64,000 nt of DNA from Nitrospirota bacterium (GCA_963701855.1 CAVPBK010000001.1:32001-96000), one strand, 5' to 3'. Shown: positions 14,335-34,733, counted from the first letter of the stretch. Made by a program: numbers and translations. Notes: generated by a model not told the origin, from the letters alone.

Positions 14335-14440
14335 CGCGCGTTGCGCGAGTACAGAAGATCATCAGGCTCCATCCCCTCCTCTGTCTTTCTGATCGTGCGG
14401 CCTCGGCGAGCAAGAAGGATGGTCTGGCAACTCCCTCCCC
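14335..14440 (+). repeat. Hairpin repeat family R1, partial copy
   Basis: CGCGCGTTGCGCGAGTACAGAAGATCATCAGGCTCCATCCC is shared with 16555ff and 34440ff. Confidence 0.8.
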
Positions 14441-14537
14441 CTATTTGCAAAAGCTTGGAATCGGCGTGTGAAATCCGGCGTACCAGGGCCTCTTTTACTA
14501 GAGGCCCTGGTGGCCGTGAAGATGGCTGATAGCAGCG

Positions 14538-14903
14538 CTATTCCACTTCGACGATAATGGTGTGGGTAGCCGTGACAAGATCGTGGTCCTTCGTGGCGCC
14601 AGTCACGGTGATCTTGTGATCTCCCTTGCTCAGGCCCTTGAACGTCCCGGAAAAGCCTTTCTGATACTGACCGTCCAGGTACACATGGACATGCGTCGCT
14701 TGAGAGCCCTTGGTCAACTCATATTTCAACTCAAAGCTGTCGTCGACCTCATCCCCGTCCTTGGGAGATGTAATGACAACCTTCGATCCGTCTTCGACTG
14801 GTGGCTTAACTGGTTTATCCGCTGCAAAGACTGGTGCCCCGCTGAAGCAGCTCGCTAACACGATCCCTAGTCCCATGAGCCCGATACGTCCCATCATCTG
14901 CAT
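14538..14903 (-). CDS. Secreted Ig-like/DUF4399-like protein, paralog 1
   Basis: RBS AAGGAGGT, signal peptide, ITSPKDGD, HVHVYLDG, GDHKITV. Close paralog at 18532-18897. Confidence 0.8.
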   Translation of the reverse strand: MQMMGRIGLMGLGIVLASCFSGAPVFAADKPVKPPVEDGSKVVITSPKDGDEVDDSFELKYELTKGSQATHVHVYLDGQYQKGFSGTFKGLSKGDHKITVTGATKDHDLVTATHTIIVEVE

Positions 14904-15010
14904 CGCGACCTCCTTAGTTGAATCAACTGAATGGACATTGCAACTTACCATCGCCTGTGGGCTATCTGCTTGTCTGATTTCCCATCGCTCTCCGGTGGAG
15001 AATATCCGGC

Positions 15011-15039
15011 AATCTACTTCTCAGAATTGCCCCCGTCAA
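15011..15039 (-). promoter_or_regulatory. sigma70 promoter of paralog 1
   Basis: TTGACG-17bp-TAGATT. An equivalent promoter is conserved in the second copy. Confidence 0.6.
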
Positions 15040-15045
15040 CCCGAA

Positions 15046-15201
15046 CATGCGCGCATCGAAGTGCTTTTCTATCTTCTCCCTTCAGGGCAGGCTAGAAGGT
15101 CTCCCTCTGCGCGTGTTCAACGAGGGTCTTCCGAGACCGCGCGTTGCACGAGCACAGGAGATCCTCTAGCCTGCCCTCACATGCTCATTCCAAGCTCGCT
15201 T
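15046..15201 (+). repeat. Hairpin repeat family R1
   Basis: Outer stem AGGGCAGGCTAGAAGGTCTCC/GGAGATCCTCTAGCCTGCCCT encloses core CTGCGCGTGTTCAACGAG-GGTC-TTCCGA-GACC-GCGCGTTGCACGAGCACAG, followed by linker TCCAAGCTCGCT. Confidence 0.85.
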
Positions 15202-15337
15202 ACCTATCTCACCCTTATTGAACAGACTGCCAAGAAATTAAAAAAGGGGGGAGGTACAGTCTCCAGTTGATATCGTTGAGCAATTTGTTAGATGATAATG
15301 GGTTAGACAGCGATATCAGACAATGGGGGTGGATATC

Positions 15338-15520
15338 ATGACAAAAGCGCAAGCTGCTGCGTTACGCGAGAAGTGGGAAGAGGGAGAAAATCTTCCATGT
15401 AAGCATCTGCACCTGGAATTGGAACACAACAACAACGATTATTTGACGGACAACTATCACTGTACTGCCTGCGGTGAATTGGTTGCCGCCAACACCCGTG
15501 ATCCCTTTCAAGTCATCTGA
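15338..15520 (+). CDS. Small putative zinc-ribbon protein
   Basis: 60 aa with CKH...CTACG. Alternative ATG at 15323. Confidence 0.6.
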   Translation: MTKAQAAALREKWEEGENLPCKHLHLELEHNNNDYLTDNYHCTACGELVAANTRDPFQVI

Positions 15521-15686
15521 CCCCGACCAAGCCATCATCCCCACGTCTTCAGGATCCGAAATCGGGGTTCACTGAGCGAAAACGTCACCTGCGCGCGAAG
15601 CATCTCTGAAAGTGTCTGAAAATGTCGGACAGGCTCCTGGCCATGCACAGAACCATTCTGTGAACATCTCGTGGCAGTGGATACTC

Positions 15687-16370
15687 CTATCTCCGCAAGA
15701 AGCCGATCCACCGCCACAGGTTCAACAGACTCGCCAGGGAGGCCGCCACATAGGTCAGCGCGGCCGCGGTGAGGATGCGGCGGGCCCCCTGCTCGTCTTC
15801 AGGCGATAGATAGTTTCTTTGCTGGAGTATCGGCAGTGCACGCCTGAAACTGGCGTCCCACTCGACTGGAAGCGTGACAAGGTGCACAAGCGTGGAGATC
15901 CCCATCGTGGCCATCCCGGCAACCAGAACAAATACACCCGCCACAGGGGTCTGAGCTAACGCCACCGCAATCGGAATGCCCATCATCACTACCCCTCCGA
16001 GCTTTTCAGCCCCGTGCGCGACCCGCACAAGTCGCGTACGCTCCGTGAACGGCCGATAGCCTGCATGGTCTTGGATGGCATGCCCGACCTCGTGAGCGGC
16101 AACGGTGATAGCGGTGAGGGATTTCCCATTGAATTTATCGGGTGTCAGGCGGACGGCTTTAGTCTCAGGGTCGTAATGGTCACCCAGTTCGGTCGTTTCC
16201 ACCTTGATGTGCGTCATGTCTAACCGATCGAGCAGGTGCCGCGCTAACTCCGCTCCAGTTCCCGGATAGTCGGGACGGGGCATACTATGCTGGGCAAACA
16301 CCCGCCTGGTCCATAGTTGTGGACCGAATATGACGATACCGACAATGATCAACAGCAGGGCTATACGCAC
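15687..16370 (-). CDS. Membrane zinc metallopeptidase (YugP/Zn_peptidase_2)
   Basis: DHYDP, AAHEVGHAIQ, TLPVEWDASFRRA, AAALTYVA. Confidence 0.92.
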   Translation of the reverse strand: MRIALLLIIVGIVIFGPQLWTRRVFAQHSMPRPDYPGTGAELARHLLDRLDMTHIKVETTELGDHYDPETKAVRLTPDKFNGKSLTAITVAAHEVGHAIQDHAGYRPFTERTRLVRVAHGAEKLGGVVMMGIPIAVALAQTPVAGVFVLVAGMATMGISTLVHLVTLPVEWDASFRRALPILQQRNYLSPEDEQGARRILTAAALTYVAASLASLLNLWRWIGFLRR

Positions 16371-16522
16371 CCTATACCCCCTACCCTCCTATCGGGCGAG
16401 GCACTCGGCCAAGGCCATCGGCAAACACATGTGTGGGAGTGCCCCCTTTTTCACTCACGTTAACACAATGGACGGATGAAAAAGACGGGTAACAAACTTC
16501 CAGGAAATTAAGTGGGACAGTA

Positions 16523-16730
16523 CACTGCGCGTGTCCGACGAGGGTCTTCCGAGACCGAGCGTTGCACGAGCACAGGAGATCATCAGGCTCCATCCCTTCC
16601 TCTGCTCCAAACATCTACAAAGGGGAGTGGCCAAGGTTGCCCTTGACTGCGCGCATCGAGCGACCGCTGCTTTATCGCGGGGCTCTGCGAGCGAGAAGGG
16701 CACCTTGCCGCTCCCCTCCCCCCTTCCAAA
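16523..16730 (+). repeat. Hairpin repeat family R1, two modules
   Basis: Two cores separated by CAAACATCTACAAAGGGGAGTGGCCAAGG, colinear with 34409-34600. Confidence 0.85.
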
Positions 16731-16932
16731 CTCCCTCGCACTTTTCCCTCAAAGGATAGCCCGGATCTATCCTTGCTGCGCCTATCAACTGAACACCGCC
16801 TATCCTCTCCCTGCCTCTCTATTTGACCAGCTAACAGCCCTTTCTCTCATCTTGTGACTAGCCTGATCTGTTCGTCTGTGCTATAGACCGCGCATCGGGT
16901 CGCACCGAACAACCTCGAAAGACACAAGCACG

Positions 16933-18183: not shown

Positions 18184-18531
18184 CTCTCTCCTAATCTGCC
18201 CACTCATTTTACTTGGTGCAGGGGCCAGATGCCCATTTCCCAGGACGAGCATCGCCATTGTCGAAGCTTCGTTTCTCTCTTCCATCTTTCATGTGTTGTC
18301 CTCCGCTTAAAACTCTGACAGGGGAAATTAGCCATGGGAAATGCGGAAAGCTGGGGAATTTGTTCGTAACGATCGTGATGGGAGACAACCGACCTCCGAA
18401 CATAGGAACAGGCTGTCCAGAAATTACGGAAGGCCGTATATGTGAAGGGGCGGAAACGGTTTATGAAACCCGACACACCAGAGCCTCTTTCACAGAGGCC
18501 CTGGTGGCCCTGAGGGTGGTTAGTTGTAGCC

Positions 18532-18897
18532 CTACTGTACCTCGACGGTGATGCTATGACTGGCTGTGACAGGATCGTGGTCCTTTGTCGCGCCGGTCAC
18601 AGTGATCTTGTGCGTCCCCTTGCTCAGACCCTTAATCTCCCCCTTAAAACCCTTCTGATACTGATCGTCTACATATGCATGGACATGCGTACCTGCGGAG
18701 CCCTTGGCCAACTCATACTTCACCTCAAAAGTGTCACTGACCTTGTCCCCGTCCTTGGGAGACGTAATCGTCACCTTTGACCCGTCCTCTACTGGCGCAG
18801 CCGCTGGTTTATCCCCTGCGAAGACTGGCGCCCCACTAAGACATCCCGCCAACGCGATCCCTAATCCCATGAATCCTATACGTCCCATCATCTGCAT
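18532..18897 (-). CDS. Secreted Ig-like/DUF4399-like protein, paralog 2
   Basis: RBS AAGGAGGT, MQMMGRIG start, HVHAYVDD. Same architecture as 14538-14903. Confidence 0.8.
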   Translation of the reverse strand: MQMMGRIGFMGLGIALAGCLSGAPVFAGDKPAAAPVEDGSKVTITSPKDGDKVSDTFEVKYELAKGSAGTHVHAYVDDQYQKGFKGEIKGLSKGTHKITVTGATKDHDPVTASHSITVEVQ

Positions 18898-19005
18898 CGT
18901 GACCTCCTTGTTTGAACCAACTGAATGAACACTACCACCTACCATCCTCTCCAGGATATCCTCTTCTCTGACTACCAGTCGTTCCCTGGCAGAGATCATC
19001 CGAAC

Positions 19006-19034
19006 ATTCTACTTTTCAAGATTGCCTCAGTCAA
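19006..19034 (-). promoter_or_regulatory. sigma70 promoter of paralog 2
   Basis: TTGACT-17bp-TAGAAT. Confidence 0.65.
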
Positions 19035-19041
19035 TCCGCAC

Positions 19042-19345
19042 CTGCGCGCATCGAGCAACCGCGAACACAAATAATCCCTCCAAGCTTGCTCGCTATCTCT
19101 TCAGGGACGGGGACTGATTGATCTTCTCCTGCGCGCAGCTTTCTCACCCGCCTACCCACTGGCAAATATTTCTCACCCATCCTACCCTCCGATTGCTTCG
19201 CAATCGATTTCCCTGGACGTGCCACTAGCCCAGGCGAAGGCCTCCCGATTCTCCATACCTTTCTCAGGGGAGTGGCCAAGGCTGCCCTTTATTGCGCGCT
19301 CTGCGAGCAAGAAGGGCACATGGACATTCCTCTCCCCCTCCCTCC
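19042..19345 (+). repeat. Hairpin repeat family R1, degenerate mosaic
   Basis: CTGCGCGCATCGAGC, ATCCCTCCAAGCT, TCTCTTCAGGGA..GGG.CTGATTGATCTTC and GGGGAGTGGCCAAGGCTGCCC are shared with 34318-34600. Confidence 0.8.
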
Positions 19346-19394
19346 TCACTCCACAATATAATATGGTACGGTAGAGCAACGACGGAGCCCGGCG

Positions 19395-20339
19395 ATGACC
19401 ATTCAGGCACAGTTTCCAGACGAGCAGAACATCGAGGGCGCCTTTATCAGGCAGCCGGATGCCTTTCAGGGCTGGGTGACCGCGAATGGCAACTCCGGCT
19501 ACCAGGCAGCGAGCGGCCGCTACCATCTCTATGTCTCATGGGCCTGCCCCTGGGCGCATCGGACGATTATTGTGCGGAAACTCAAGAAACTCGAACATGT
19601 GATCGGCATGACGATTGTGGACCCGATCCGCGACGAGCGGGGCTGGACCTTCCGAGAAGGACCAGGGCATTCACTCGATCCCATCAACGGATTCCAGTTC
19701 CTCAGTCAGGCCTACAAGGCCACCGATCCGAACTATCGAGGACGGTTCACCGTACCTGTGTTATGGGATACGATGACGAAACGCATCGTCACCAATTCCG
19801 ACGATGATCTCATGCGCATGTTCAACGGCGAATTCGATCGCTTCACCGAGAGCATGATCGACCTCTATCAAGAAGGAATCAGGAATGAGATCGAGAGCCT
19901 CAATACCTTCATCTACGAGAACGTGAACGACGGGGTCTATCGCGCGGGATTCGCCACATCACAGCAGGCCTATGAACGAGCCGTGTTGCGCCTCTTCGAC
20001 GCCCTCGATCAACTTGAGGCCAGGCTGGCGCGCCAACGCTACCTCTTCGGCTCACAATTCGTCGAAACCGATTGGCGCTTGTTCGTCACCCTCGTGCGCT
20101 TCGACGCCGTCTACCATGGCCATTTCAAATGCAACATCCGGCGGATCATCGACTACCCGAACCTCTTCAACTACCTCAAAGACCTCTATCAGACCGACGG
20201 CATCGCCGACACGGTGAACTTCGACCACATCAAGCGGCATTACTACATCACCCACGACGACATCAATCCAACCCGCATCGTCCCCCTCGGTCCCGATCAA
20301 GATCTCACCACCCCCCACGGCCGCGAACATCTGAGATAA
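19395..20339 (+). CDS. yqjG: Glutathionyl-hydroquinone reductase (Xi-class GST)
   Basis: RYHLYVSWACPWAHR, TVPVLWD, GVYRAGFATSQ, RFDAVYHGHFKCN, HIKRHYY. Confidence 0.93.
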   Translation: MTIQAQFPDEQNIEGAFIRQPDAFQGWVTANGNSGYQAASGRYHLYVSWACPWAHRTIIVRKLKKLEHVIGMTIVDPIRDERGWTFREGPGHSLDPINGFQFLSQAYKATDPNYRGRFTVPVLWDTMTKRIVTNSDDDLMRMFNGEFDRFTESMIDLYQEGIRNEIESLNTFIYENVNDGVYRAGFATSQQAYERAVLRLFDALDQLEARLARQRYLFGSQFVETDWRLFVTLVRFDAVYHGHFKCNIRRIIDYPNLFNYLKDLYQTDGIADTVNFDHIKRHYYITHDDINPTRIVPLGPDQDLTTPHGREHLR

Positions 20340-20350
20340 CGAGCAGGCCG

Positions 20351-20439
20351 GTCTTTCTGGTTTTTTTGGTTCATCTGGTTTATCTGGTTAGTTTGGTTCA
20401 ACCAAATAAACGAGACAAACCAAACAAACCAGAACAACC
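20351..20439. repeat. 9-nt-period inverted repeat hairpin (family R2)
   Basis: (TCTGGTTyr)n arm followed by an (AAACCAGAC-like)n arm, ~11 nt after the yqjG stop. Confidence 0.8.
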
Positions 20440-20649
20440 GCTTTCGCGGCAACCCTTGCGCGACTGATACGTCCGTGGTAAGGTGCAACGTGATCGCGTA
20501 AGACCTTCCGTGCTCGGAGGCTGCAGTCCTCCAGCAGACACGAAGTCTGACGCGATATTTTTTTGCCCGCACGCAGCCGTCCTGCATCTGCTGAGCATTC
20601 CGCCGAAGGCATAACCATCCCTCGCGCTCATTGCTAGCCCGACATCGCC

Positions 20650-21633
20650 GTGGGGTCATCCGTTACAATTCAAAGAGGTGAATCGTTGTTTCAAGAATTA
20701 TGGTCAACAGTCCGGGCCTTCCTCCGCAATACCGCGGGGAGTCTCTATCACATTGTCGTCGTCGCCCTAAGTGCTGGCATTGCGCTCTCGCTCCCGGCAG
20801 GCGCCAAACAGTTTTTATCGTTCTGGTCTCAAGTCGAGCATGACCTGATCTCGCTCATTGCCGTGGAAATGACGGTGGCGATCCTCCTGATCGTCTGCCT
20901 CAACTACTTCCATCGCAGCATACGGGACCGGGCCCTTGCCACCGTGGCGACCGGCGCCGGCCTCGTCTCGTTCTTCCCGCGCCGCACGCGGGGAGCACAA
21001 CGGCACATCAAGCGACTCAAGGAAGAGCAGGGCACAGGCCGAACTATCTCGGTCATCGGGTCAAGCGGCCACAGTACCTTTGTGGATCAAGTGGGAGGTC
21101 TGTCCTCGGTCCTCGACAAATGCCTGGGAGCCAGGATTATGCTGGTGAATCCCTACAGCCAGGAAGCGAGCGCGCGCATACAGGCGATCAACCATCCCGA
21201 GTTCACGCTGGAAACATTCCGGGAAGAAGTTCGACAAAGTATCCGGCTCCTCAAGCGGCTGAAGGCCATGGGGAAAGCCGTCAAACTCAAGCTCTACTCA
21301 GATTCCCCGTTGATGAAATTGGTGATCCTCGGAGATTATCTTTGGCTCCAGCATTACCATGCCGATCTGGACGTCCAGACCATGCCGGAGTATGTCCTGC
21401 GGCACAATCGCAAGGACCACGGCCTTTATACCCTCTATGCCCACTACTTCGTGCAGCGATGGGAGAGCGCCGAAATTCCGGAGTACGATCTCGACACGGA
21501 CGAGCTGGTGTACCGAAGCAAAGCCGGCAACGAAATCCGGAGAGAGCGGTTTGAGATTGGGGCGGCGTCCGAAGAAATCGGAGCCCAGCTGGAGACGCTC
21601 GAACTCACCGCCGAACCGGCCCAAGTCGGCTGA
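20650..21633 (+). CDS. Hypothetical protein: two N-terminal TM helices plus alpha/beta domain (DUF5919-like)
   Basis: Two hydrophobic segments, then ARIMLVNP and LKLY...KLVILGDYLWLQHY. The start may be TTG 20686 behind GAGGTG. Confidence 0.7.
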   Translation: MGSSVTIQRGESLFQELWSTVRAFLRNTAGSLYHIVVVALSAGIALSLPAGAKQFLSFWSQVEHDLISLIAVEMTVAILLIVCLNYFHRSIRDRALATVATGAGLVSFFPRRTRGAQRHIKRLKEEQGTGRTISVIGSSGHSTFVDQVGGLSSVLDKCLGARIMLVNPYSQEASARIQAINHPEFTLETFREEVRQSIRLLKRLKAMGKAVKLKLYSDSPLMKLVILGDYLWLQHYHADLDVQTMPEYVLRHNRKDHGLYTLYAHYFVQRWESAEIPEYDLDTDELVYRSKAGNEIRRERFEIGAASEEIGAQLETLELTAEPAQVG

Positions 21634-21677
21634 GCCAATCGGGCCAACACAAGATCAGCACGTCTGGAGCAAGCCAG

Positions 21678-21796
21678 GTCTGTCTGGTCTGTTCGGTCTG
21701 TCTGGTTTGTTTGGTTGAACGAAACTAACCAGATGGACCAGAAAGACTGGACAGACCAAATGAACAAGACAGTCTGGCAGCCTTTTCAGCATCTTG
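21678..21796. repeat. Family R2 hairpin followed by degenerate M1 right end
   Basis: GTCTGTCTG repeats / AACCAGATG repeats, then CTGGCAGCCTTTTCAGCATCTTG. Confidence 0.75.
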
Positions 21797-21835
21797 GTAG
21801 AGTACAATTCATTTTTTCAGAAAGTCTGTCCCCTC

Positions 21836-22675
21836 ATGTCCATCCAGTGGTTTCCCGGTCACATGAATACGGCGCGCAAAGAAGCGGCCAAGACGATGGA
21901 GGTGATCGATGTCATCGTCGAAGTACTAGATGCGCGAATACCAAACGCTAGCTGCAATCCACTGATCGAAGAACTGCGCCTCACCCGCCAGCGCCCTAGC
22001 CTGAAAGTTCTCAACAAAGCCGATCTCGCCGACCCCGCCGTCACTCAGGCTTGGCTCGATCTCTATAATCGGCAATCGGGCGTCAGCGCTGTAGCTCTTT
22101 CTTGTAGTCATGCGGGCGATGCCGCGAAGCTGCCCCAGTTTTGTCAGCCGCTCGCGCCCCATCGCAACAGCAGCGCGAAGCCGCTGCGCATGCTTATTAT
22201 GGGGGTTCCCAACGTCGGAAAATCGACCCTGATGAACATGCTCCTCAAACGCCGCGTCGCTCGCGTGGGCGACGAACCAGCCGTGACCAAAGTTCAACAA
22301 CGTCACAAACTCAACGACCGCATGGCCATCATCGACTCACCCGGACTGTTGTGGGGAACCATCAAAGACCCTCATGTGGGCCTCCTGCTCGCCACGGTCA
22401 ACGCCATAAGCCACAAGGTCGTGGATGACGAAGAGGTCGCAGAGTTTCTCGCTGGAATCTTGCTCGCGCGCTATCCTGCCCGGCTCACGACCCGCTACGG
22501 CTTTGCTGTGGACGGGCTGACTAGTGCTGGCGTGATCGACGCCGTAGGCAAAAAGCGTGGCTGCCTATTGACCAGAAGCGGCGGCGGAATAGATCGAAAC
22601 AAAGCGGCAAGGATACTCTTGTTGGACTACCGCAACGGCGCGCTCGGCCGCACCAGCTTGGAGACACCGGAGTAG
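21836..22675 (+). CDS. ylqF: Ribosome biogenesis GTPase
   Basis: IQWFPGHM, EVLDARIP, LNKADL (G4 preceding G1), GVPNVGKST, DSPG. Confidence 0.95.
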   Translation: MSIQWFPGHMNTARKEAAKTMEVIDVIVEVLDARIPNASCNPLIEELRLTRQRPSLKVLNKADLADPAVTQAWLDLYNRQSGVSAVALSCSHAGDAAKLPQFCQPLAPHRNSSAKPLRMLIMGVPNVGKSTLMNMLLKRRVARVGDEPAVTKVQQRHKLNDRMAIIDSPGLLWGTIKDPHVGLLLATVNAISHKVVDDEEVAEFLAGILLARYPARLTTRYGFAVDGLTSAGVIDAVGKKRGCLLTRSGGGIDRNKAARILLLDYRNGALGRTSLETPE

Positions 22676-22704
22676 GTGGGCAGAAGAACAGCCCGGTATG
22701 GGCA

Positions 22705-22790
22705 GTTTATCTGGTGGATAGGTTTGTCTGGTCTATATCATCCCCCGAACAAGACAAACCAAATAAACCTCTGTAACCAGACAAACTAGA
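22705..22790. repeat. Family R2 hairpin
   Basis: TTTATCTGG/TTTGTCTGG arm and ACAAACCAA/AACCAGACA arm between the convergent ylqF and RNB genes. Confidence 0.65.
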
Positions 22791-22804
22791 GAACCGCAAC
22801 TCGC

Positions 22805-24268: not shown

Positions 24269-24367
24269 GTGTTCCCTTCAATCTGGGATGAGACCCGGTT
24301 AGTTCTTGGTAGGGAAGGAGCAGGGGACACTCCGGCGAGAAAAGGCTCCCGACCAACTTTGTGGACC

Positions 24368-27052
24368 CTATGCAGAAGCTACCGCTTTATCAATAACAGA
24401 AAAGTCCCCGTCGGTTGGCATCCCAAATAGGCACCGTCCGCCGCTTCGGGACGCCCAGACTTGACCAACTGCCCGCTTTTCTTCAGCGTCCACAGCGTCG
24501 TACAGATGTTTCCCTTTGTATTCGACCGCAAGCACTCGCCCATCAGCAAGTTGGCAAAGGAAGTCTGGATAAAACCAGTCTGTTGAGGTTTGCAGCCGGA
24601 ATGATGTGGGCTTGCGAGGGAGGTTCCGAACCCAGAACTGCACTTGCGGCAAACCATCGAGGAACTGCGCGCACCGAAACTCCTCCGTGGTCTGACCATC
24701 GGCCGTCTTTTCGGACAGTTCTCCAGGCTTTGGCCCGAAATAGTGCTTTTGAAACTGAAAGCCCCCTTCATAGACACGGCTCGGCTCATAGCCCATCGTC
24801 TTGAAGTTGATCGTGCGCCCTTCGTCTACGGTCAGCGGCGAATCCGGGAGAAGCAACAACTGAAACGACGCCTTCCGCTCGCTCTCTCGATGACCCTGGA
24901 TACGTGCCGCAATCTCATCGCGGAGCCGAAAACGATCGAGCGCCAGAGTACTGACATCCGTCATACCCAACTTCGCCATGAGTCCTCTGATAACTTTTCT
25001 CAGAAACTCCGCCGACTCACCGGCTGGAATGTCCGGATGGTCAATTTCCCGGTCCAACCACGCGACCAGGCTTTCGAGCGACCATTCGTTCGCACCACCG
25101 AGTTGGAGCACTTGCTGATGCAACGTGCCGACAAAGTCCGCCTCCGGAGTTTCTCGGATCACGCTGATCTGCACCTCGCCTTTGACTCCGATGTCCACCA
25201 GCCCGGCTTTGCCGTAGGGACGCACAAGAGGACTATAGCCTGCTGGCAGCGAGGCATCTTTTTCGCTAAGCCTCCACGGGTGTTCGATCAGAAACGTACT
25301 CTCGAACTCGTAGGGAGTCCCGTTTTCGAGGACACAGAGCAGCGGCACGAGAAAGTCCAGTTGCCGCTCGTAAGGCGAGGGAACGCGTGTGGCCCCGGTG
25401 CCGCCGAACGCCTTCTCTGCCTCTCGCACAAGCGCGACCGCTTCCTCCACCTGAGTCTTGGCTTCGGGAGTCTTGACGCAGCTCTTCAGCCTTTCAATGT
25501 CGTCTCGATCGAGCGGGACCACGATGGTGATCTCGCCTGTGGCGGCATCGATTCGCACTTTCCCGGCAAGGGCCAATACCTGGATGGGTGCCGCCTTCGC
25601 ATCAATGGCACTCGGCGCCACCCGCACGGTTTGTGGCTGCACACCGAGCGGGAGAGTGCCTTGCGGAACCGGAATGATGATACGCTCGGTCTCTGCTGCC
25701 GTGAAACCGTTGTGCTCCAGCGCCTCGCGCAATTCCGCGAGCACATCCGTAATCGAATCCGATACTGAGAAGGCGTAGGCGCAATTGAGATCGGGATGCC
25801 GCTTCATCTGCGCGAGTGGCAGCCGGAGAATGCGTCCGACGATCTGCTCAATGGCGGTGGGCGACCGCGTCTCCTTGAGGCTGCACAACACATAGGCAAA
25901 GGGGCAATCCCATCCCTCTCGCAGCTTTTCGACCGTGATAATCACGCGTACCGGGCACTTCGGCGACGAAATATCCTTCACATCTTTCAACTCATCGAGC
26001 CTGCCGACTGAGATTTTCACCTCGTCCTTCGATAGGTTGAACTCGCGCACCAGCCGGTCGCGTAGCGGCTCACAGGCATCGACACGTTCAGCCTGGATCA
26101 AGAGAATAGGCCGGATATACTCGCTCGTCTGTTGTCCTTCGGCCACAGCCAGCCTTTCGAGATCGGCACGGAGCGTGACCGCCTCCGCCAGCAGTTGATC
26201 GCGCTGGCTCGGATGCCGCGTGATAACCCGTAGCGGCAGCTTCACCATCTGCGCGGTTTTTAATTCAGCCGCCGAGATGCGATGCAGCACGTTCGATGGA
26301 GTCTTTTCCCGTGCCGGCGTCGCCGTAAATTCAACGATGCACGATGGCAACACATCGCCGAGTGTAGAAAAGGATAAGTCGGTACGAGCGTTGTGCGCTT
26401 CGTCCACAATGACGATGGGCCGGCGCAGCCGCAGCATGTTCACGAGCGACGGCTTGGGTTTGCCGTCTGCTCCAGGCAACAGATCGGCCAGGCGTTCCAA
26501 TGATATGTTGAGCAAATGTTCTGCAAATGCGCCGTTCTGGTCATAGACCTTGCGCCCTGTCGTATCCTCGACACGGAACGATTGAATCGTCGCCACGATC
26601 ACAACCGTCTGCCCCTCCACGGTTGCGCGCGACAGACGCAACGCCTCCGCAATAGTCACCACTTCCACCGCGCCACATGCCAGTTCCAACGCGCGGCGAT
26701 AGGGATGGCGCGGATCGCGCAACGCATCGGCAGTCTGATCGAGAATGGTGTTACTAGGCACGAGCCACAATACGACGGCATGGTCGGCCCGCATGAAGTC
26801 GTGCAGGGCAAGACCTGCTGCATAACAGGCCAGCAGCGTCTTGCCGCCGCCTGTGGGCACTCGCAGACACACATACGGCATGCGCGACTCCAGTCCTGCA
26901 ACTGACACAGGAAAATAGGGCATCGCTTCCCCATACACTCGCCTCGTCACGTCCCGAAACGCCGAATCTGGATCGTAGGTGCGGGCAGCCACGCGAAAGA
27001 ACTCACGCAACGATTCGAGCACGCGCTCTTGATAGTCTTTCAGCGCAATCAC
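24368..27052 (-). CDS. res: Type III restriction enzyme Res subunit
   Basis: VPTGGGKT, DEAH, FTATP, EGWDCP, QIVGRILR, C-terminal FYPDF...VEYKG nuclease. Lies downstream of a mod gene. Confidence 0.9.
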   Translation of the reverse strand: MIALKDYQERVLESLREFFRVAARTYDPDSAFRDVTRRVYGEAMPYFPVSVAGLESRMPYVCLRVPTGGGKTLLACYAAGLALHDFMRADHAVVLWLVPSNTILDQTADALRDPRHPYRRALELACGAVEVVTIAEALRLSRATVEGQTVVIVATIQSFRVEDTTGRKVYDQNGAFAEHLLNISLERLADLLPGADGKPKPSLVNMLRLRRPIVIVDEAHNARTDLSFSTLGDVLPSCIVEFTATPAREKTPSNVLHRISAAELKTAQMVKLPLRVITRHPSQRDQLLAEAVTLRADLERLAVAEGQQTSEYIRPILLIQAERVDACEPLRDRLVREFNLSKDEVKISVGRLDELKDVKDISSPKCPVRVIITVEKLREGWDCPFAYVLCSLKETRSPTAIEQIVGRILRLPLAQMKRHPDLNCAYAFSVSDSITDVLAELREALEHNGFTAAETERIIIPVPQGTLPLGVQPQTVRVAPSAIDAKAAPIQVLALAGKVRIDAATGEITIVVPLDRDDIERLKSCVKTPEAKTQVEEAVALVREAEKAFGGTGATRVPSPYERQLDFLVPLLCVLENGTPYEFESTFLIEHPWRLSEKDASLPAGYSPLVRPYGKAGLVDIGVKGEVQISVIRETPEADFVGTLHQQVLQLGGANEWSLESLVAWLDREIDHPDIPAGESAEFLRKVIRGLMAKLGMTDVSTLALDRFRLRDEIAARIQGHRESERKASFQLLLLPDSPLTVDEGRTINFKTMGYEPSRVYEGGFQFQKHYFGPKPGELSEKTADGQTTEEFRCAQFLDGLPQVQFWVRNLPRKPTSFRLQTSTDWFYPDFLCQLADGRVLAVEYKGKHLYDAVDAEEKRAVGQVWASRSGGRCLFGMPTDGDFSVIDKAVASA

Positions 27053-27648: not shown

Positions 27649-27651
27649 AGA

Positions 27652-29368
27652 TCAGCTCACCTTAATCTCGTAGGGTGTCTGCCGAACAAGAGTACGCTCC
27701 GCCTGGAGTCGATCCTTCCCCAGCAAGCACCCGGCACAATAGATCACTTTCTGACCATCGAACTTTGGCAGTTTCGCCAGCACCGAACGCGTCAGCACGT
27801 TGCCCCCGCCCGAGCTTTTGTCGCCGAGAATGCCATTGAACAACAAATAGATTCCCACGCCCCGGCACTCGCCGATGAACGGCGACTTCGTCACGCGCTC
27901 GCGCGGGAGCGGCTCGCCCGTTTCAGTGAAATAGACGTGGCGCGCAAGGTCGGCAAAACTCACAGTCTCGCGAATCTTCCCGCTCTCGCCGAACAAAGGC
28001 TCTCCCAACTCACAATAGCGGAAGCTGCCCCCAAGCCCTTCAACCTTCTCACCCTTCGCATTCTTGTAGCCTTCGGCGACACGACGCACACGTTCGGCCG
28101 TAATCTTACGAGCGATCGACTCCTTCATTTCAACGAGAATGAACCGGCGATCTTGCCGATCAACATGATTCAACTTCAGTACAGCATGACCCGTTGTTCC
28201 CGATCCAGCGAAGGAGTCCAAAATCAAGTCATCATCGGACGTTGTAAAGCTGAGGAGTTCCTCTATCAACTCCGTAGGCTTTGGGAAATCAAACGGTCGC
28301 TTATCATCAGGGAATATGTCTTTTATCTCATATGTTCCAATTCGCCCATCCAACTCGAAAAGACTTGCCAGCTTTGCACGGTAATCTTTCACGTATACTT
28401 TCAGTTCGATGATTTTGGATTCGTCATCACCGAACAGAACACGGTTTTGAGCGAGCAATCCATCGAGCGTTTCTTTTGGAAAACGGTAGCCCATAAGAGG
28501 CTGCACGCACGGACTACCTGTAACGGGGTGAAGCACATCGTAACGGTAACCTTCTTTACCGGGGTTATGAACACTCTGGCTCCCGGTATAAATACCGCCA
28601 TCATCAATGTATTTGTAGCGGTCGAACGGCCAAAGGTAATCTTTATTCTCCCTGAACCATTTGGTGTACTCCTTCTGCCGCTTGTCGGGGTCCGAATATT
28701 TCCTCACGAACTCGTCCCCGACTAGTCAGTAGCTTATCCTTCACAGCCAAATTGACTGACTTCCACTCGCGAGGGAGCTTTTCCTTGTTCCTTGCATAGC
28801 AGAGAACATACTCATGCTCGGTGGCAATGTTCGTTGGATTGTTATCGGTTGCGTTCTTCCAAACCAATGTTCCAATTCGATTCGTGGCGCCAAAGATTTC
28901 GTCGAACAAAAGGCGCAGGGTTGGCACCTCTATCTCGTCAATACTTGCAAAGATCACCCCATCTTGTCGCAAGAACTTCTGCAGTAAGGCGATACGTGGA
29001 TACATCATGCAGAGCCATTTATCGTGTCGTGACAGGTCTTCCGCTTCTTCTCCGACGACTTTGCCTAACCACTCACGAATTTCCGGGCTATTAACATTGT
29101 CGTTGTAAATCCACCCTGAGCGTTTTCCTTCGTCGTTCCTTTCGTCCACACCAGTGTTGTATGGAGGATCGATATAGATGCACTTCACCTGCCCGGCGTA
29201 ATACGGAAGCAGCGCCTTGAGCGCAACGAGGTTATCCCCCTGTACGATGAGATTCCCGTCGCCCGGCTCACCGCAGGCGAGATCCGGCACGTCTTTGAGC
29301 AGGTGAAACGGCACCTGGTGGTGATGATTCACCACCGCCTCTTTCCCGATCCAATTCAGTGTAGGCAT
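27652..29368 (-). pseudogene. mod: Type III DNA methyltransferase (Mod), frameshifted
   Basis: The 5' frame has MPTLNWIGK, QGDNL and IYIDPPYNTG. The 3' frame has FPKP and LDSFAGSGTT. The frames differ by +1 nt at ~28720-28725. Confidence 0.88.
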
Positions 29369-29552
29369 AGAGAGAAGCCCGCCAAAATTAACCGCCGAAG
29401 AATACCCCTTTACCCGCAAGAAATCACGCGGCCATTTGTGAGGGAGAGAGAAAAGACCCTGTACTGGGAAGACATGAGATGTGAAAAATAACACGCGAGA
29501 AGCGAGGCGGCTGATATCGTCTCCACTGGTGTGCATCAAGCAAGGCTACAGA

Positions 29553-29791
29553 CGATCCCTCCAAGCTGCTTACCTCCTTCACAGGGCAGCCTGGTTGATC
29601 CTCGATTGCGCGCGTCGAACGAGCACCTTCTGAGCGTGCGCGTTCCGCGAGCAGGAGGATGACCAGGCTGCCCATCCCATCCTTCCGAGGCCGCGCGTTG
29701 CGCGAGCACAGGAGATCAACAGGCCGCCCTCCCGCTCTCTATTCTGCGAACAAGAAGAGCAGCGGGGCCATTCCACACCCCTTCCAAGCTT
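29553..29791 (+). repeat. Hairpin repeat family R1
   Basis: Outer stem GGGCAGCCTGGTTGATCCTC/GAGGATGACCAGGCTGCCC around a core with inner stem GCAC-CTTCTGAGC-GTGC, followed by further partial modules. Confidence 0.85.
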
Positions 29792-29934
29792 GGTTGGCTC
29801 TCTTTCAAAGAGTTCATCACGAGATGTATGGTTCTGATTGCGTTCTCGGTTTGTACCAGCTATATGATAGGAGCTTAACTAGAATCGCCTCCGTGCGGAG
29901 AACCAATAAATAATTCCGATGTCCGCTTCAACGT

Positions 29935-30405: not shown

Positions 30406-30422
30406 CCCCCACAACAGCATCC

Positions 30423-30550
30423 AGCAAGATACTGGAAACGTCCGCCAGCCTGAGAAGACGGTTGTTTGGTTTCTTCTGGTTTGTCTGGTTATTTTGTTGA
30501 ACGAAAACTAACAGATGAACTAGATAAACGAGAAAGACCAGATGAATCAG
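30423..30550. repeat. Degenerate M1 left end plus family R2 hairpin
   Basis: GCAAGATACTGGAAACGTCCGCCAGC, then TCTGGTTTG repeats / AACAGATGAACTAGATAAAC. Confidence 0.7.
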
Positions 30551-30603
30551 AGCAACCTGTCCCGTCAGTTTCGGTCACCCCGTTATCGTGCCGGCCCCCA
30601 CAC

Positions 30604-31134
30604 TTACTTGTTCCTCATCCGCCCAGTTCCCGTTGTCCCCACCATGACGACCACCTTTGTCTGGGGAGAAAAAGCTTGCTCGACGCGTTGCTTTCCGTTG
30701 GTCGTGAGGATAACAATTCCGCTGTGACTCTCAATGCGCTGAAGAAAATGGGCCGTCTCCGCACTTGCGAATCGGTCATGGGCATCGGTGACTGTACCGC
30801 GCGCCCTAAACAGCGCGTCTACTTCATCGAAGAAGAGGATCGCGCCACTGGTTTCTGCTTTATCAAATACGTCGTTCAGATTCTTCTCCGTCTCGCCGAT
30901 GTATTGACTTACCACCGCCGACAAATCCACTCTGAACAAATCTGTTTGTAGGGATTCGGCCAACGTCTCGGCGGACTTCCTTCGGCGGAGCGCCGTGGAG
31001 CCTGACAGAACCAGGACCGCGACAGATGTCGCCTTGGACTTCTTTGCCCGGCGTACCGACCTTGCCTTCTTCTTCGCTGCTGCCTTCTTCACCGCGGTCT
31101 TCGGTCTCTTCCCTTTGATTACCTTAGCTGCCAT
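30604..31134 (-). CDS. Lys/Ala-rich N-terminus fused to a degenerate AAA+ ATPase domain
   Basis: VDLSAVVSQYIGETEKNL, Walker B LFFDEVDALF, DAHDRFA, sensor I ILTTN. The Walker A position reads GSTALRRRKS. Confidence 0.75.
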   Translation of the reverse strand: MAAKVIKGKRPKTAVKKAAAKKKARSVRRAKKSKATSVAVLVLSGSTALRRRKSAETLAESLQTDLFRVDLSAVVSQYIGETEKNLNDVFDKAETSGAILFFDEVDALFRARGTVTDAHDRFASAETAHFLQRIESHSGIVILTTNGKQRVEQAFSPQTKVVVMVGTTGTGRMRNK

Positions 31135-31292
31135 TCTTTTCCACGCTTCTCTTAATACGTTGAACTCCCGCCCCCTCCAATGTCCTGCCGCCGCATTCAC
31201 TCCCGAATATGCAGGCGACGGCTTGCGGATCTTATCTGCAATTGATCACAATGACCAGCGACTTACCCTGCACATAGGAAAGACTTCTCCTG

Positions 31293-31631
31293 ATGATGCC
31301 AACGGCGCTGATCGAACAGGAGCTCGCGGCAGCCGAGGCCGCACGGCATGACAACAACGACGGAAAGGCGCGAGTCTGTGCCAGACGCGCCGTGGCCCTC
31401 GCTACCGAAGCGTGGTTGGCACAGTTCTCTATTCCACGATGGCGGGGGGATGCAATGGCCCATCTCAGGCAAATTCAGCAGGACGAGTCGTTCCCTCTTC
31501 TCATCCGCCAGGCGGCCGAGCGATTGAGCACCCCGGTAACCCGTCAGCACGCAGCCCCCTTCACGATAAACCCCATCGCCGACGCAAGACTCATCATTGC
31601 CTATCTCAGCAGCACCAAGGGTGGCGCGTGA
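31293..31631 (+). CDS. Conserved hypothetical protein
   Basis: 112-aa helical ORF with a GKARVCARRA motif. Confidence 0.65.
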   Translation: MMPTALIEQELAAAEAARHDNNDGKARVCARRAVALATEAWLAQFSIPRWRGDAMAHLRQIQQDESFPLLIRQAAERLSTPVTRQHAAPFTINPIADARLIIAYLSSTKGGA

Positions 31632-31651
31632 AACGCGAGGATCGACTGATC

Positions 31652-31818
31652 TCTCTTGTTTATTTGGTCTGTGTTGTTTGTTTGGTTGCACGAGACTAAC
31701 CAGATGAACAAAACAAACCAGATGAACCAGATCAACCCGCCCCGCCCGCCTTGCGTGCTACAACAGCTTTTTTGCAGCCTGCACCCCTCTCTAAAGGGGA
31801 GTGGCTGAGGCTGCCCTT
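31652..31818. repeat. Family R2 hairpin, M1-like end and R1 fragment
   Basis: TTTGG/AACCAGATG repeats (31652-31736), TTTTTTGCAGCCTGC (~31767-31781), AAAGGGGAGTGGCTGAGGCTGCCCTT (~31793-31818). Confidence 0.7.
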
Positions 31819-32137
31819 CACCATTTTTCTCGACCGGTGGAGACTTCTAAGATCCCTTCTGTAGGAACGTCCACCTTATCTGCTTCAAAAACCTCTCCCT
31901 GAAATCGTAAGGAATGAGGTCGATTTCCCGAATGATTTGAACTATCCTTGGGCCGGTTCAAAAAGGAATCATTCTGGCCCTCGGACTGTTGGCCGGACGT
32001 GATGGCAGCGTAAGCCAATGGGCAGCAGCGAAATGAGAGGAGCACAGCGGGTTAGAAGGATTGAAGAAATCCTGGACGGTTGTGATGTCCTCACGAAGAA
32101 TGAACAAGCAAGCCGCCATAGGGAAGGAGTTCACACC

Positions 32138-32803
32138 ATGAAGGTGGCACAGATTTGGCGGTACCCGATAAAATCGATGGGTGGTGAACGGCTGAATCAC
32201 GCGCACATCGGTTCTCTTGGCATCGATGGGGATCGCGTCGTGCATGTGGAGGACGCGCACGGTCATGTGATCACGGCCAGAACACACCATCGGCTTCTCG
32301 GTCACCATGCCACGCTCAACGCGTCCGGCGAGCCTGTGGTTGGCGGCTTGCTGTGGAGCGATCCCAAGGTCCGCACAGATGTTGTGGACATCGTTGGGCC
32401 TGGCGCCCGGCTGGTTCGCGACGAGTCGAGCGATCGTTTCGACGTGCTCCCCTTGTTGGTCGCGACGGATGGAGCTATCACGGCCTTTGAACATGATGGT
32501 CGGCGACTCAGACCTAACCTTGTGATCGGCGGGGTCGAGAGCCTGACCGAGCGCTCGTGGCCTGGACAATGCCTGCATATCGGAGACGTCATCATCGGAA
32601 TCCAGGATCTTCGTGGGCGCTGCATCATGACGACGTTTGATCCTGACAGCCTGAAACAAGATCGTCAGGTGCTCACAGACATCGTGCGGAAATTCGGGGG
32701 CACGCTCGCCTTGAATTGTTACGTGATCCGGGGCGGCAAGATTCGAGTCGGCGACACCGTGGAGCTGGCCCGACACCATGAATGCGAGACCGCCCGCGCG
32801 TAG
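32138..32803 (+). CDS. MOSC domain protein
   Basis: RBS AAGGAG, IWRYPIKSMGGE, GDR, RRLRPNLVI, RCIMTTFDP, GKIRVGD. Confidence 0.9.
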   Translation: MKVAQIWRYPIKSMGGERLNHAHIGSLGIDGDRVVHVEDAHGHVITARTHHRLLGHHATLNASGEPVVGGLLWSDPKVRTDVVDIVGPGARLVRDESSDRFDVLPLLVATDGAITAFEHDGRRLRPNLVIGGVESLTERSWPGQCLHIGDVIIGIQDLRGRCIMTTFDPDSLKQDRQVLTDIVRKFGGTLALNCYVIRGGKIRVGDTVELARHHECETARA

Positions 32804-33121
32804 AGAGACCAACTCATGAGCGAGATGTCCCAAAAAGTCTCCTGTCAGATTTCTGTTGGTCCCGAAACTGACACTCACCTGCAAAACAGCGAGGAAGGTC
32901 ATCTTCCAAAAAAACTGAACGGTGCTGGCTGCATGAGCGGACTCACTGCCAATCGGACAGCAAAATTAAAAAAGAAAAACTATCAATGAGCAACGAATCA
33001 AAGACCGTTGTTTTTGAAGCCTTAGATCGTGAGTGGAAACCATGTGATATTTCCGGGATTCCAGTAGCAGATCCGCAATGCTTTTTGAGCCACACGCTAG
33101 GGAATCCGTTCTTTTCCGCCC

Positions 33122-34036
33122 ATGCTAATTGATAGTCCGTCCATTTCAGGTGCCACCTTTCAACGCTGTCGCTGGGTCAAACGCCATGACAGGGCGGACA
33201 CCGGGGAGGTGTTGGCACTTGTGAGCGATATCCTAAGCGTCGTGGAGCAACAAGGAAAGTTTCTAATAGATGTGCCTGAAGGCTGGGTTCCTGAAAAGTG
33301 GGTCAAGGCTGTTAGGGGTGGTACACAACGATACGTTGATTACATGAATACCATGAAGCTTTCGGACTCTGATGTGCTCTCGCCTGAGCAGCGGCGCGAG
33401 ATTGCTCTGCTTCGACTGCTAGTGCGCGAGCTTCAACGATTATTGGGGATTGGTGCGGACCAGACGGTTCAACGTCTTGGACATGCGTTCCATAACGTCG
33501 ATCGAGAGTTGCGAACGCTAGTTTCTGACACAGAGTATTCAATGTACATGTTCCGAGTCATCAGTGCTGACTGGGACATGCTGTCGATGGAAATGCGAGA
33601 AGGCTGTTGCCGAGTTGTGGGTCTTGAACTACAAGAGGCGGAGGAGTTGATTAACACACAGGGGTTCTCCATCAATTGTTCGGGCTCCCGTCGATTCAGA
33701 ATCAACACTCTGATCTCTAGAAACACTGCGCTCCATCTCCATGGTGTAACCGTTGAGGGCACTGTAAGAGAAGTTACAGTTCATCCGCCCATACCTGTGG
33801 GTGAAGAGAGCACAATGCATAATGCGTACTCTTTAGTGCTAGAAGATGAAACGGGCTCTATAGTTGCGGAAGTCATTGACACTGGCGAGCCAGTTCTGTC
33901 TTTCCCAGTTCCGCCTTTTCAAGGTAGGAGAGTCGTCATTGATGGAACCGTTGAGGTACTAAGCCAAGGATTGACGAACAGGCCACTTGTCAGGCTCAAA
34001 GCACAAGCGGGAAGAGTCCGTTTAGTGGACGACTGA
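33122..34036 (+). CDS. Hypothetical protein with C-terminal OB-fold-like domain, lower GC
   Basis: 304-aa ORF with VTVEGTV...LVLEDETGSI...GRRVVIDGTV. Start uncertain. Confidence 0.55.
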   Translation: MLIDSPSISGATFQRCRWVKRHDRADTGEVLALVSDILSVVEQQGKFLIDVPEGWVPEKWVKAVRGGTQRYVDYMNTMKLSDSDVLSPEQRREIALLRLLVRELQRLLGIGADQTVQRLGHAFHNVDRELRTLVSDTEYSMYMFRVISADWDMLSMEMREGCCRVVGLELQEAEELINTQGFSINCSGSRRFRINTLISRNTALHLHGVTVEGTVREVTVHPPIPVGEESTMHNAYSLVLEDETGSIVAEVIDTGEPVLSFPVPPFQGRRVVIDGTVEVLSQGLTNRPLVRLKAQAGRVRLVDD

Positions 34037-34082
34037 GCCGTCACTTGATGGCCTCCGATAGCTACCCGGAAGGATGTCTCGA

Positions 34083-34241
34083 TGTGCTCATTTTGTGCTC
34101 AACGCCATCTCACTCCAGCTCACTCAGGCCTACTCCAGCCAAAGTCGATTTTTTCGCAACTCCTGGCTAGAATTGGCCTGAATGAGCCTGAGTGGGCTGG
34201 AGTAGGGTGGTGACAACGCTTTCCTAACCCGCTGGTCGGGT
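34083..34241 (+). mobile_element. Relic attachment end of an integrative element (tRNA-Arg(CCT)-like core)
   Basis: TGTGCTCA direct repeat, 10-bp periodic and inverted repeats, then CAACGCTTTCCTAACCCGCTGGTCGG resembling a tRNA anticodon arm. Confidence 0.45.
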
Positions 34242-34317
34242 ATCTAGGCTGCCAGAACAACTCCTTGAATTTCAAAGCGGAGAAGAGGGCCCAACGACGG
34301 TTGGATCGCTTGCTCTT

Positions 34318-34733
34318 TACTGCGCGCATCGAACGACCGTCTTCAATCAAAATGATCCCTCCAAGCTCGCTTGTTATCTCTTCAGGGATGGGGGCTGATT
34401 GATCTTCCACTGCGCGCGTCCAACGAGGGCCTTCGGAGGCCGCGCGTTGCGCGAGCACAGAAGAGCATCAGGCTCCATCCCTTCCTCTGCTCCAAACATC
34501 TGCTAAGGGGAGTGGCCAAGGCTGCCCTCTACTGCGCGCATCGAACGAGCACATTCTTATCGTGCGCGTTCTGCGAGCAAGGAGGGCACCTGGCCACTCC
34601 CCTCCCATCCTTCCAAGCTTGCTCGTTTTTCCCCTAAGAGGGTGGCCTGATTGGTCTCCCACTGCGCGCGTCCAACGAGGGCCTTCTGAGGCCGCGCGTT
34701 GCGCGAGCACAGGAGACTAATAGGCTACCCTCC
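34318..34733 (+). repeat. Hairpin repeat family R1, array of three complete modules
   Basis: Three ~100-nt hairpins with a shared core and different self-complementary outer stems. Confidence 0.9.

Follow-up and report, generated by a model that had tools for sequence, protein, structure and literature searches.

An apparently undescribed, Nitrospira-wide family of interspersed hairpin repeats with a conserved core, covarying arms and replication-linked polarity

Several kinds of hairpin-forming sequence described in bacteria provide the background for the repeat family that we report here from Nitrospira. Repetitive extragenic palindromes (REPs) carry a conserved tetranucleotide of the GTAG type at the foot of the hairpin. 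Enterobacterial repetitive intergenic consensus sequences, or intergenic repeat units (ERIC/IRU), are imperfect extragenic palindromes of ~100-130 nt with a conserved central inverted repeat, found across related genera, and to our knowledge no transposase is associated with them. In the attC recombination sites of integrons, crossover takes place at the foot, where R''(RYYYAAC) pairs with R'(GTTRRRY), and in chromosomal arrays the orientation of these sites is biased toward replication. Single-strand transposition by HUH enzymes leaves no target duplication, and IS200/IS605-type elements insert 3' of a fixed short target. Long hairpins known as REPINs form populations that, in the part of the literature that treats them, are described as persisting vertically within a lineage. 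Y1 transposases, including TnpA-REP of E. coli, need single-stranded DNA (ssDNA), and IS608 and ISDra2 insert into and excise from the lagging-strand template, as set out in the relevant part of one account (PMC6006769). Here, we studied a stretch of 64,000 nt (hereafter, the window) from Nitrospirota bacterium (GCA_963701855.1, CAVPBK010000001.1:32001-96000), in which a preliminary description, made from the sequence alone, had pointed to a family of ~100-nt intergenic hairpin repeats.

A full unit of this family is an imperfect hairpin of ~100 nt in which a near-invariant, asymmetric core of ~51 nt lies within arms of ~20 bp. The outermost part, on the top strand, is a short pyrimidine-rich leader (often ...TCCAAGCTYGCTCGTT...); inward of it come an arm of ~20-24 nt, an internal loop of 2-3 nt, the core and an apical stem-loop, and the second arm and a C-rich tail complete the unit. 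The layout of the core is C-TGC-G-CGCG-TC-CAACG-AG-[short apical stem-loop]-GCG-CGTTG-CGCG-A-GCA-CAG, with TGC paired to GCA, CGCG to CGCG and CAACG to CGTTG, and with a bulged G and A and a bulged TC; because of these bulges the core is asymmetric, and it therefore has a defined orientation. The apical stem-loop occurs as GGCC, GGTC/GACC, GCCC/GGGC or CAC/GTG, and the inner-stem variants reported earlier (GGCC/GGCC, GGTC/GACC and GCAC/GTGC), together with the outer stems quoted with them, are present as claimed. Folded as ssDNA, six + strand sequences from the window gave -28.6 to -41.8 kcal/mol (z -5.2 to -10.8). A small open reading frame (ORF) on the bottom strand of A2 units, in which an SD-like AGGAGG precedes an ATG, was set aside; single-base indels between the A and B cores mean that, on our reading of the sequences, no common reading frame would be kept.

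The family belongs with REPs and bacterial interspersed mosaic elements (BIMEs), ERIC and other palindromic repeats that resemble MITEs (miniature inverted-repeat transposable elements). Like REP/BIME, it consists of extragenic imperfect palindromes in many copies, whole and partial units are mosaicked with other short motifs, the strand is set by asymmetry, and ssDNA is the proposed substrate. Unlike the 20-40-nt REP palindrome, however, the Nitrospira unit is ~100 nt long with a 51-nt invariant centre; the hairpin feet in the main families are RGGG...CCCY and GTAG is not present; the core is common to the whole genus; and no RAYT gene was found among the ORFs near copies. The likeness to ERIC is one of architecture, taken from its general description (a long extragenic palindrome with a conserved centre and internal indel variants), whereas the Nitrospira arms vary almost freely, across 66 families, yet stay paired, and a replication-linked polarity was measured. 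REPINs are similar in being non-autonomous long hairpins of ~100 nt, but they conserve two REPs in the arms around a variable loop, whereas the Nitrospira unit conserves its centre and varies its arms. Three features thus distinguish the family: an invariant centre within covarying arms, a genus-wide core and a measured replication polarity.

Within the window, the core motif CTGCGCGCRTCSAACGAG (≤3 mismatches) matched 10 times, always on the + strand, against 0.44 matches expected; one of these matches, at 19550, falls within a GST-like ORF (19395-20339) and is probably due to chance. A two-part pattern covering both halves of the core, TGCGCGYRTYSRACGAG-N12-16-GMGCGTT, matched 6 times against 0 expected. 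A covariance model (CM) recognized 8 strong loci, which scored 45-113 bits on the + strand and only 10-20 bits at the same places on the - strand, and it detected no independent minus-strand copy in the window and no copy in the window outside 14-35 kb. Permissive nhmmer searching added half-units at 14332, 19287, 29681 and 34319 as well as two short 5' fragments (15048 and 19042), and solo arms and linkers were also recognized by reading the window sequence. Six matches to the linker YCCAAGCTYGCT (≤1 mismatch) were found where 1.29 were expected, five of them adjoining units on the + strand and the remaining one, at 58041 on the - strand, unrelated. In total, the window contains 8 strong copies and ~8 fragments, all on the + strand and all within 14.3-34.8 kb. 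Family sequence is present at all seven loci that had been proposed to share one repeat, in the form of five full hairpins together with partial, diverged and solo-arm units, and the proposed concatenation of modules, often through a linker, is seen both in the linker matches and in an A-B-A tandem joined with linkers at 34310-34746. The family is regionally clustered. Its main-family units are confined to 21 kb of the 64-kb window, and local clusters occur elsewhere too, as in CAVZKI010000001 (8 matches in 20 kb).

When species-representative genomes were scanned with the exact two-part core pattern, at least 134 loci matched, a lower bound that says nothing about absence in other taxa. Among the matches listed, which do not include the window itself, these loci sit on 113 contigs with 69 accession prefixes; 132 of the 134 titles name Nitrospira or a higher rank that holds it (Nitrospiraceae, Nitrospirales, Nitrospirota/Nitrospirae), the other 2 carry no taxon name, and Ca. 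N. defluvii (FP929003) is represented. A core-profile search yielded 223 matches in 126 merged segments (1.01 Mb) and the window, where it gave 11 core matches. Extrapolated from the 11 window matches and the 223 in ~1 Mb of segments picked for containing copies, each genome probably holds about a hundred copies, or more. Window genes are 82-88% identical to those of one relative (L022) and 72-87% identical to those of a second (L055), so that the window derives from a related Nitrospira. The whole window had no Rfam match at gathering thresholds; a permissive Rfam search of 34280-34760 returned mir-2820 as its best hit, a chance miRNA match (20.4 bits against a threshold of 84, E 0.1). Positions 34377-34746 had no blastn match in plasmid and phage collections, and there is no tRNA or tmRNA in the window. 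Full-text searches of the literature on Nitrospira repeats (REP, MITE, REPIN/RAYT, palindromic or intergenic) turned up no description of the family, and in the relevant part of the RepRanger paper N. moscoviensis appears merely in a table of generic counts (PMC12306157). As the preliminary description had suspected, this is apparently not an already catalogued element but a previously undescribed, Nitrospira-wide family of non-coding interspersed hairpin repeats that resembles known bacterial repeats.

The clearest property of the family is the contrast between its frozen core and its free arms. We collected 155 distinct exact-pattern copies and aligned 147 of them (A1). Although the 38 nt spanned by the search pattern are conserved by construction, every column of the GCGAGCA that follows the pattern is ≥90% conserved in this alignment even though the search did not demand it. 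Among 181 full-core copies recovered by profile search, 162 have ≥15 arm base pairs and 12 have <8. The 163 well-paired copies fall into 66 arm families, including eight of 4-30 members and 52 singletons; the large families have a common loose pattern, RGGG..GGC...TC..C, and from their sequences look like diverged relatives, and some singletons look unrelated. For a fixed 28-pair structure, itself derived from the same alignment, 86.6% of cells in the 147 copies are paired, compared with 75.6% after shuffling and 34-53% when the partner is slid. The copies contain 577 double-sided changes against 248 +/- 15 in shuffles, and their covariation score is 0.373 against 0.184 (for either measure, 0 of 500 shuffles reached the observed value). 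Double changes occur at all 16 arm pairs and at 3 of the 12 core pairs, where whole pairs switch from G:C to A:T (101/42) or from C:G to G:C (77/68), and RNAalifold reported compensatory changes at 10 of 20 pairs. Covariation across the collected copies is thus significant in both core and arms and well above the shuffled and slid controls, which supports the earlier proposal of selection on a single-strand fold. Arms-only hairpins were not found for 8 arm families, the sole short-gap case being the deleted copy in the window; this argues against entry of the core into pre-existing hairpins, an origin that we rejected.

Both folding and pairing exceptions indicate which strand is under selection. 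In 163 of 181 copies the top strand forms the more stable fold (means -33.9 vs -30.3 kcal/mol), and its arm stems contain 200 G:T pairs but only 25 single A.C mismatches. In the 8 largest families, departures from Watson-Crick consensus pairs comprise 94 G:T, 47 A.C and 77 compensatory cells, and the family consensus sequences include 12 G:T and 0 A.C. The mutation pressure that usually generates skew would favour A and C on the C-rich strand; an excess of G:T in spite of it therefore argues for selection on pairing of the top strand.

The orientation of copies is linked to replication. In segments of ≥8 kb, and with replication direction taken from GC skew alone, the top strand lies on the locally C-rich strand (flanking +/-10 kb) in 105 of 126 matches (two-sided binomial about 1e-14). 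The preference persists without the window (98/119) and when counted by segment (43 vs 8). The earlier statement that every copy is on the + strand therefore holds for the window, where it is true of all 8 loci found by the CM, but elsewhere it becomes a tendency of 83%, with both orientations on single contigs. A crude ORF caller placed 52 matches with the top strand antisense to both adjacent genes, 27 with it sense to both, 26 between convergent genes and 17 between divergent genes, and of the 146 matches the remaining ones lie inside an ORF (7) or at a contig edge (17). The C-rich preference is found in each of these contexts (38/46, 20/24, 17/23 and 15/17, respectively), whereas the genes themselves show almost none (370/671). 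It is also found in stable, intermediate and weak hairpins (29/34, 24/34 and 31/34), in copies with <15 arm pairs (9/10) and in partial copies (19/22), and we therefore rejected selection against stable hairpins as its source. Since the bias is equal across gene contexts, stabilities and fragments, polarity follows replication rather than transcription or hairpin strength, as the preliminary description had anticipated in proposing a strand bias independent of neighbouring gene direction; it was probably set at the moment a copy was made. Leading strands are usually G-rich. If that is the case here, the top strand would be the nascent lagging strand or the leading-strand template, and not the lagging-strand template.

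These contexts also bear on whether the repeat acts as a structured RNA, be it a small RNA, a 3' hairpin that stabilises mRNA as in REP and ERIC transcripts, or else an insulator or terminator. Covariation together with G:U-type tolerance on one strand would be expected of such an RNA, the D-type families are terminator-like, with an A-run before and a T-run after the hairpin, and divergent intergenic regions are under-represented (17/122). However, the T-run is missing from most families, none has an Rfam match, 52 of 122 contexts place the G:T-tolerant strand antisense to both flanking genes, and in only 53 of 122 does a gene read into it; further, polarity tracks GC skew equally whatever the gene context. 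A structured non-coding RNA, one of the possibilities raised at the outset, is thus a poor fit, and we regard it as very improbable.

Copies are combined and broken in ways that recur between genomes. Apical stems, basal core types and arms are found in new combinations; for example, A2 arms may enclose a B core, an A-type apex may sit on C arms, and F arms may surround an A core. Chimeras take the left arm from one family and the right arm from another. Three junctions are found in several genomes. In one, seen at window 19128, a left arm and CTGCGCGC lead into an alternative centre of greater length; in the next (window 34310), a left arm of B type carries 16 nt of core, then a spacer, the linker and an A2 unit; and in the last (window 29681), a B/C hairpin ends in a CCTTC tail that continues directly as the loop and 3' half of an A core. 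The copies thus form BIME-like mosaics with truncated and chimeric units, and the modular build first read from the window extends, in these reassorted arms and cores and recurrent composites, to the wider family.

Three comparisons of filled and empty orthologous sites show that species differ by gains and losses of copies, including some next to housekeeping genes. A block of ~260 nt in the window (16485-16743), containing a partial A unit and a B unit, is missing from the syntenic L022. In L055, a G-type unit of ~117 nt lies between the RNase II and res genes, with about 4-8 nt around GAAC repeated at both ends, and there is none at the corresponding position in the window (24322-24331). 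In SWDN01000003, a B unit and 62-66 nt of unique sequence make up a 175-nt block, bordered by a GATGAA duplication, between a stop codon and the next start codon; the site is empty in CAVREB010000002. At another orthologous site the window has a G-type unit and L022 an A2 unit, and three genomes have a unit at one common site, where in one of them it is truncated with a second unit behind. Inserted blocks have a leader of 17-62 nt on one side only, so that the arms are not terminal, and the duplications differ in length; this may set them apart from a DDE-type MITE, with its terminal inverted repeats and a target duplication of fixed length.

Such junctions could also arise if no enzyme were involved. 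The hairpin might stall replication, after which the nascent strand would switch template by microhomology, as in microhomology-mediated break-induced replication (MMBIR) or fork stalling and template switching (FoSTeS), so that a chunk bearing the element is copied into another fork; polarity would be inherited, since such switches join like strands. The short and variable duplications and microhomologies, the unique sequence within inserted blocks, the truncations and recurrent junctions at the base of the core and in the loop (including the CCTTC microhomology), the equal polarity bias of intact, weak and truncated copies, and the lack of an enzyme gene among the ORFs scanned near copies are all in line with this model. 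It nevertheless leaves unexplained why a 51-nt core and its bulges are frozen while the arms drift, and where the polarity bias originates, and it is judged from two or three junctions; we think it quite unlikely.

Alternatively, the host may have recruited the core hairpin of one strand as a structural DNA site to which a chromosomal protein binds, with a role in, for example, nucleoid organisation, topology, or priming or restart, and the site would be kept in the way proposed for some BIMEs. Flanking genes are 72-90% identical between species and the core is far more conserved genus-wide, although that conservation is partly imposed by the exact search pattern. Polarity that tracks replication and not transcription, core housekeeping genes adjoining copies and the maintenance of elements at orthologous sites in three genomes would likewise suit a host site. 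Gain and loss of sites between close relatives, a patchy, clustered spread that leaves 43 of the window's 64 kb without a copy, and the many truncated or chimeric copies do not, and we know of no candidate binding protein. We consider this explanation unlikely, though it deserves to be kept in mind.

Searches for a mobilising enzyme covered the ORFs of the window and those nearest copies, rather than whole genomes. Clustering of 960 ORFs near copies produced 789 clusters, the largest with 7 members, and hence no conserved neighbouring gene. Pfam searches of the 184 ORFs nearest copies and 29 window ORFs found no Y1/HUH/RAYT, IS200/IS605 or DDE transposase and no integrase; the nearest ORFs encode housekeeping and assorted functions. 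The suggestion that an HUH enzyme (RAYT or IS200/IS605 type) or an integrase would accompany the repeats was therefore not borne out among these ORFs. That copies mark junctions of accessory genes is true in part, but in other genomes they adjoin polA, dnaE, gyrB, glyS, guaA, tgt, scpAB, recG and similar housekeeping genes.

The proposal of a site that shuffles gene cassettes invites comparison with attC, since in both a conserved structure tolerates free stem sequence and bulged bases at fixed positions define the strand. The chimeric units and half-sites joined to unrelated DNA, the units on both sides of a type III restriction-modification (R-M) locus in L055, and the match of GTCCAAC in the A core to RYYYAAC could be taken as signs of a structure-specified recombination site that exchanges flanking genes. 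The anatomy differs, however: the AAC/GTT boxes are close to the apex, ~25 bp of stem separating them from the foot, whereas attC boxes are basal, and GTTGCGC, like GTTCTGC and GTTCCGC (B and C cores included), does not match GTTRRRY. Further, no integrase was found in the window or the nearest ORFs, neighbouring genes run in both directions and are mostly housekeeping, and tandem units occur with no genes or cassettes between them and no cassette array. An attC-like site is therefore highly improbable, and the shuffling proposal loses support with it.

The explanation that we tentatively favour, without regarding it as established, is a non-autonomous DNA hairpin element of the top strand, whose core is read by a factor encoded elsewhere and which is copied at the replication fork. 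The element would work as ssDNA, with the hairpin forming on the top strand; a trans-acting protein would read the invariant core with its fixed bulges, so that the arms need only pair; and new copies would be made in a fork-coupled step, which would set their orientation with respect to replication. Half-units, tandem mosaics, chimeric arms and exchanged apical and basal modules could then be generated as copies later recombine, undergo gene conversion or slip against one another. The family has a single central hairpin, and IS200/IS605 elements have two subterminal ones. Recognition of a hairpin on one strand and an orientation tied to the fork recall IS200/IS605, as far as the relevant part of one account goes (PMC6006769).

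Several observations weigh against this explanation. If leading strands are G-rich, the better-folding strand of the family, on the C-rich side, has the opposite polarity to that given for IS608 and ISDra2 in the same part of that account (PMC6006769). Short direct duplications border two insertions (GATGAA, and 4-8 nt around GAAC; a third, at window 16485-16743/L022, is doubtful), which also differs from IS200/IS605, and inserted blocks contain 45-66 nt of unique extra sequence, which fits copying of a chunk better than precise transposition. No other copy of this extra sequence was found by blastn among the sequences collected. No mobilising enzyme was found among the 184 nearest and 29 window ORFs. 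Because copies within a family are related, the events counted for G:T, A.C and covariation are not independent of one another, and a core more conserved than the flanking genes could reflect a host function rather than selfish spread. A bolder form of the favoured explanation, for which we see only a small chance, is that the core is the recognition module of a strand-specific ssDNA enzyme or replisome-associated protein confined to Nitrospira, making the family a new structure-specified mobile or recombination site with a logic like that of attC and REP. It would act on the nascent lagging strand or the leading-strand template, both complementary to the template of the lagging strand, with entry by annealing of pyrimidine-rich flanks to purine-rich intergenic targets at the fork.

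The copies in the window, all on the + strand, range from full hairpins to remnants. Two half-units come first: the 3' half of an A-type core with an A2-type right arm (14332-14383; family D8, nhmmer E=0.016), followed by the 3' half of a B/F-type unit consisting of a loop remnant, 3' core and right arm (14384-14440; D12, from sequence). A 5' core fragment at 15046-15060 (D20; weak nhmmer match at 15048-15060) forms the end of a segment duplicated at 19005-19054. It is followed by a full hairpin with G-type arms and a T-variant A core (15074-15192; CM 87.8 bits, fold -34.8 kcal/mol, z -7.1) and by a linker, TCCAAGCTCGCT (15189-15200, linker pattern search). At 16496-16609 an A core and A2 right arm have unrelated sequence in place of the left arm (CM 62.5 bits); this copy is within the ~260-nt block missing from L022, and a B-type hairpin with a diverged core follows at 16614-16729 (CM 67.3 bits, z -6.3). 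The next group begins with a 5' core fragment, spacer and linker TCCAAGCT (19009-19092; CM 12.6 bits, E 0.13, with a linker match), continues with an A2-type left arm and the first 8 nt of a core leading into a degenerate centre variant with a long insert (19095-19258, recognized from sequence; the junction recurs in at least 8 other genomes), and ends with a B-type hairpin whose core centre is deleted (19259-19345; CM 44.7 bits and sequence).

Farther along, a linker or leader recognized from sequence (CCCTCCAAGCTGCTTACC..., 29553-29572) introduces a full unit with C-type arms and core (29573-29689; CM 102 bits, z -5.2), an A core 3' half that starts in the loop at CCTTC and retains its right arm (29681-29740; nhmmer E=1e-5, the junction recurring in many genomes), and a degenerate 3' half-unit with linker TCCAAGCTTGGT (29741-29800; sequence and linker search). 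A solo B-type left arm with no core lies at 31790-31820 (D13, sequence). The tandem opens with a composite that recurs in other genomes, a 5' core fragment of 16-18 nt with spacer and linker (34310-34371; nhmmer E=4e-4), and its three full hairpins have A2 arms and an A core (34377-34494; CM 112.6 bits, z -7.0), B arms and a B core (34499-34615; CM 106.3 bits, -41.8 kcal/mol, z -10.8), and A3 arms and an A core (34629-34746; CM 111.9 bits, z -7.5).

Other features of the window and its relatives were observed alongside the repeats. Positions 14500-15059 and 18494-19054 are a duplicated segment (77-82% identical) that carries a small gene for a Big_7-like secreted protein (14538-14951 and 18532-18999, both on the - strand) and its upstream region; in both duplicates, homology stops within a repeat core, in its first ~14 nt, as if the break had occurred at the core. 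A second duplication, at 48995-50980, consists of two tandem paralogous genes (49007-49969 and 50018-50896, both on the - strand) with DNA 78-84% identical. The window has a type III-like R-M locus in which the N6_N4 DNA methylase gene (27652-29539) is split into two overlapping ORFs, one (28643-29539) matching profile positions 1-125 and the other (27652-28707) positions 145-218. Its orthologue in L055 is a single ORF of 560 aa, and the split gene is probably a frameshifted mod gene beside an intact res helicase (24368-27052) and an ORF6N gene. In L055 the same locus is flanked by two units in opposite orientation (9964-10093 and ~15440-15480); in the window a unit cluster lies on its right side only (29553-29800). 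A 466-aa reverse transcriptase with an RVT_1 domain only (L078, 10232-11632) ends ~160 nt from a repeat unit in the same orientation. A further repeat family in the window consists of 9-nt units, first TCTGGTTTG-like and then AACCAGAYR-like, arrayed so as to make long hairpins at 20352-20447, 21679-21765, 22739-22790, 30461-30547 and 31650-31736, all with the same polarity on the + strand. These arrays flank genes at 20650-22675 and 30604-31691, the three that were folded gave z values of -6.8, -6.4 and -1.8, and in JANOOS010000012 a main-family half-unit directly adjoins an array of similar 9-mers.

Members of Nitrospira are key nitrifiers, and their genomes come mostly from metagenome bins. 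A genus-wide, probably high-copy repeat breaks assemblies and marks points of rearrangement, and the family also supplies a taxon-specific marker. It is a clean natural case in which a frozen core, putatively recognized by a protein, is set within freely covarying stems and has a measurable replication polarity, and its study could uncover a new enzyme acting on single-stranded DNA or a new route by which hairpin repeats spread.

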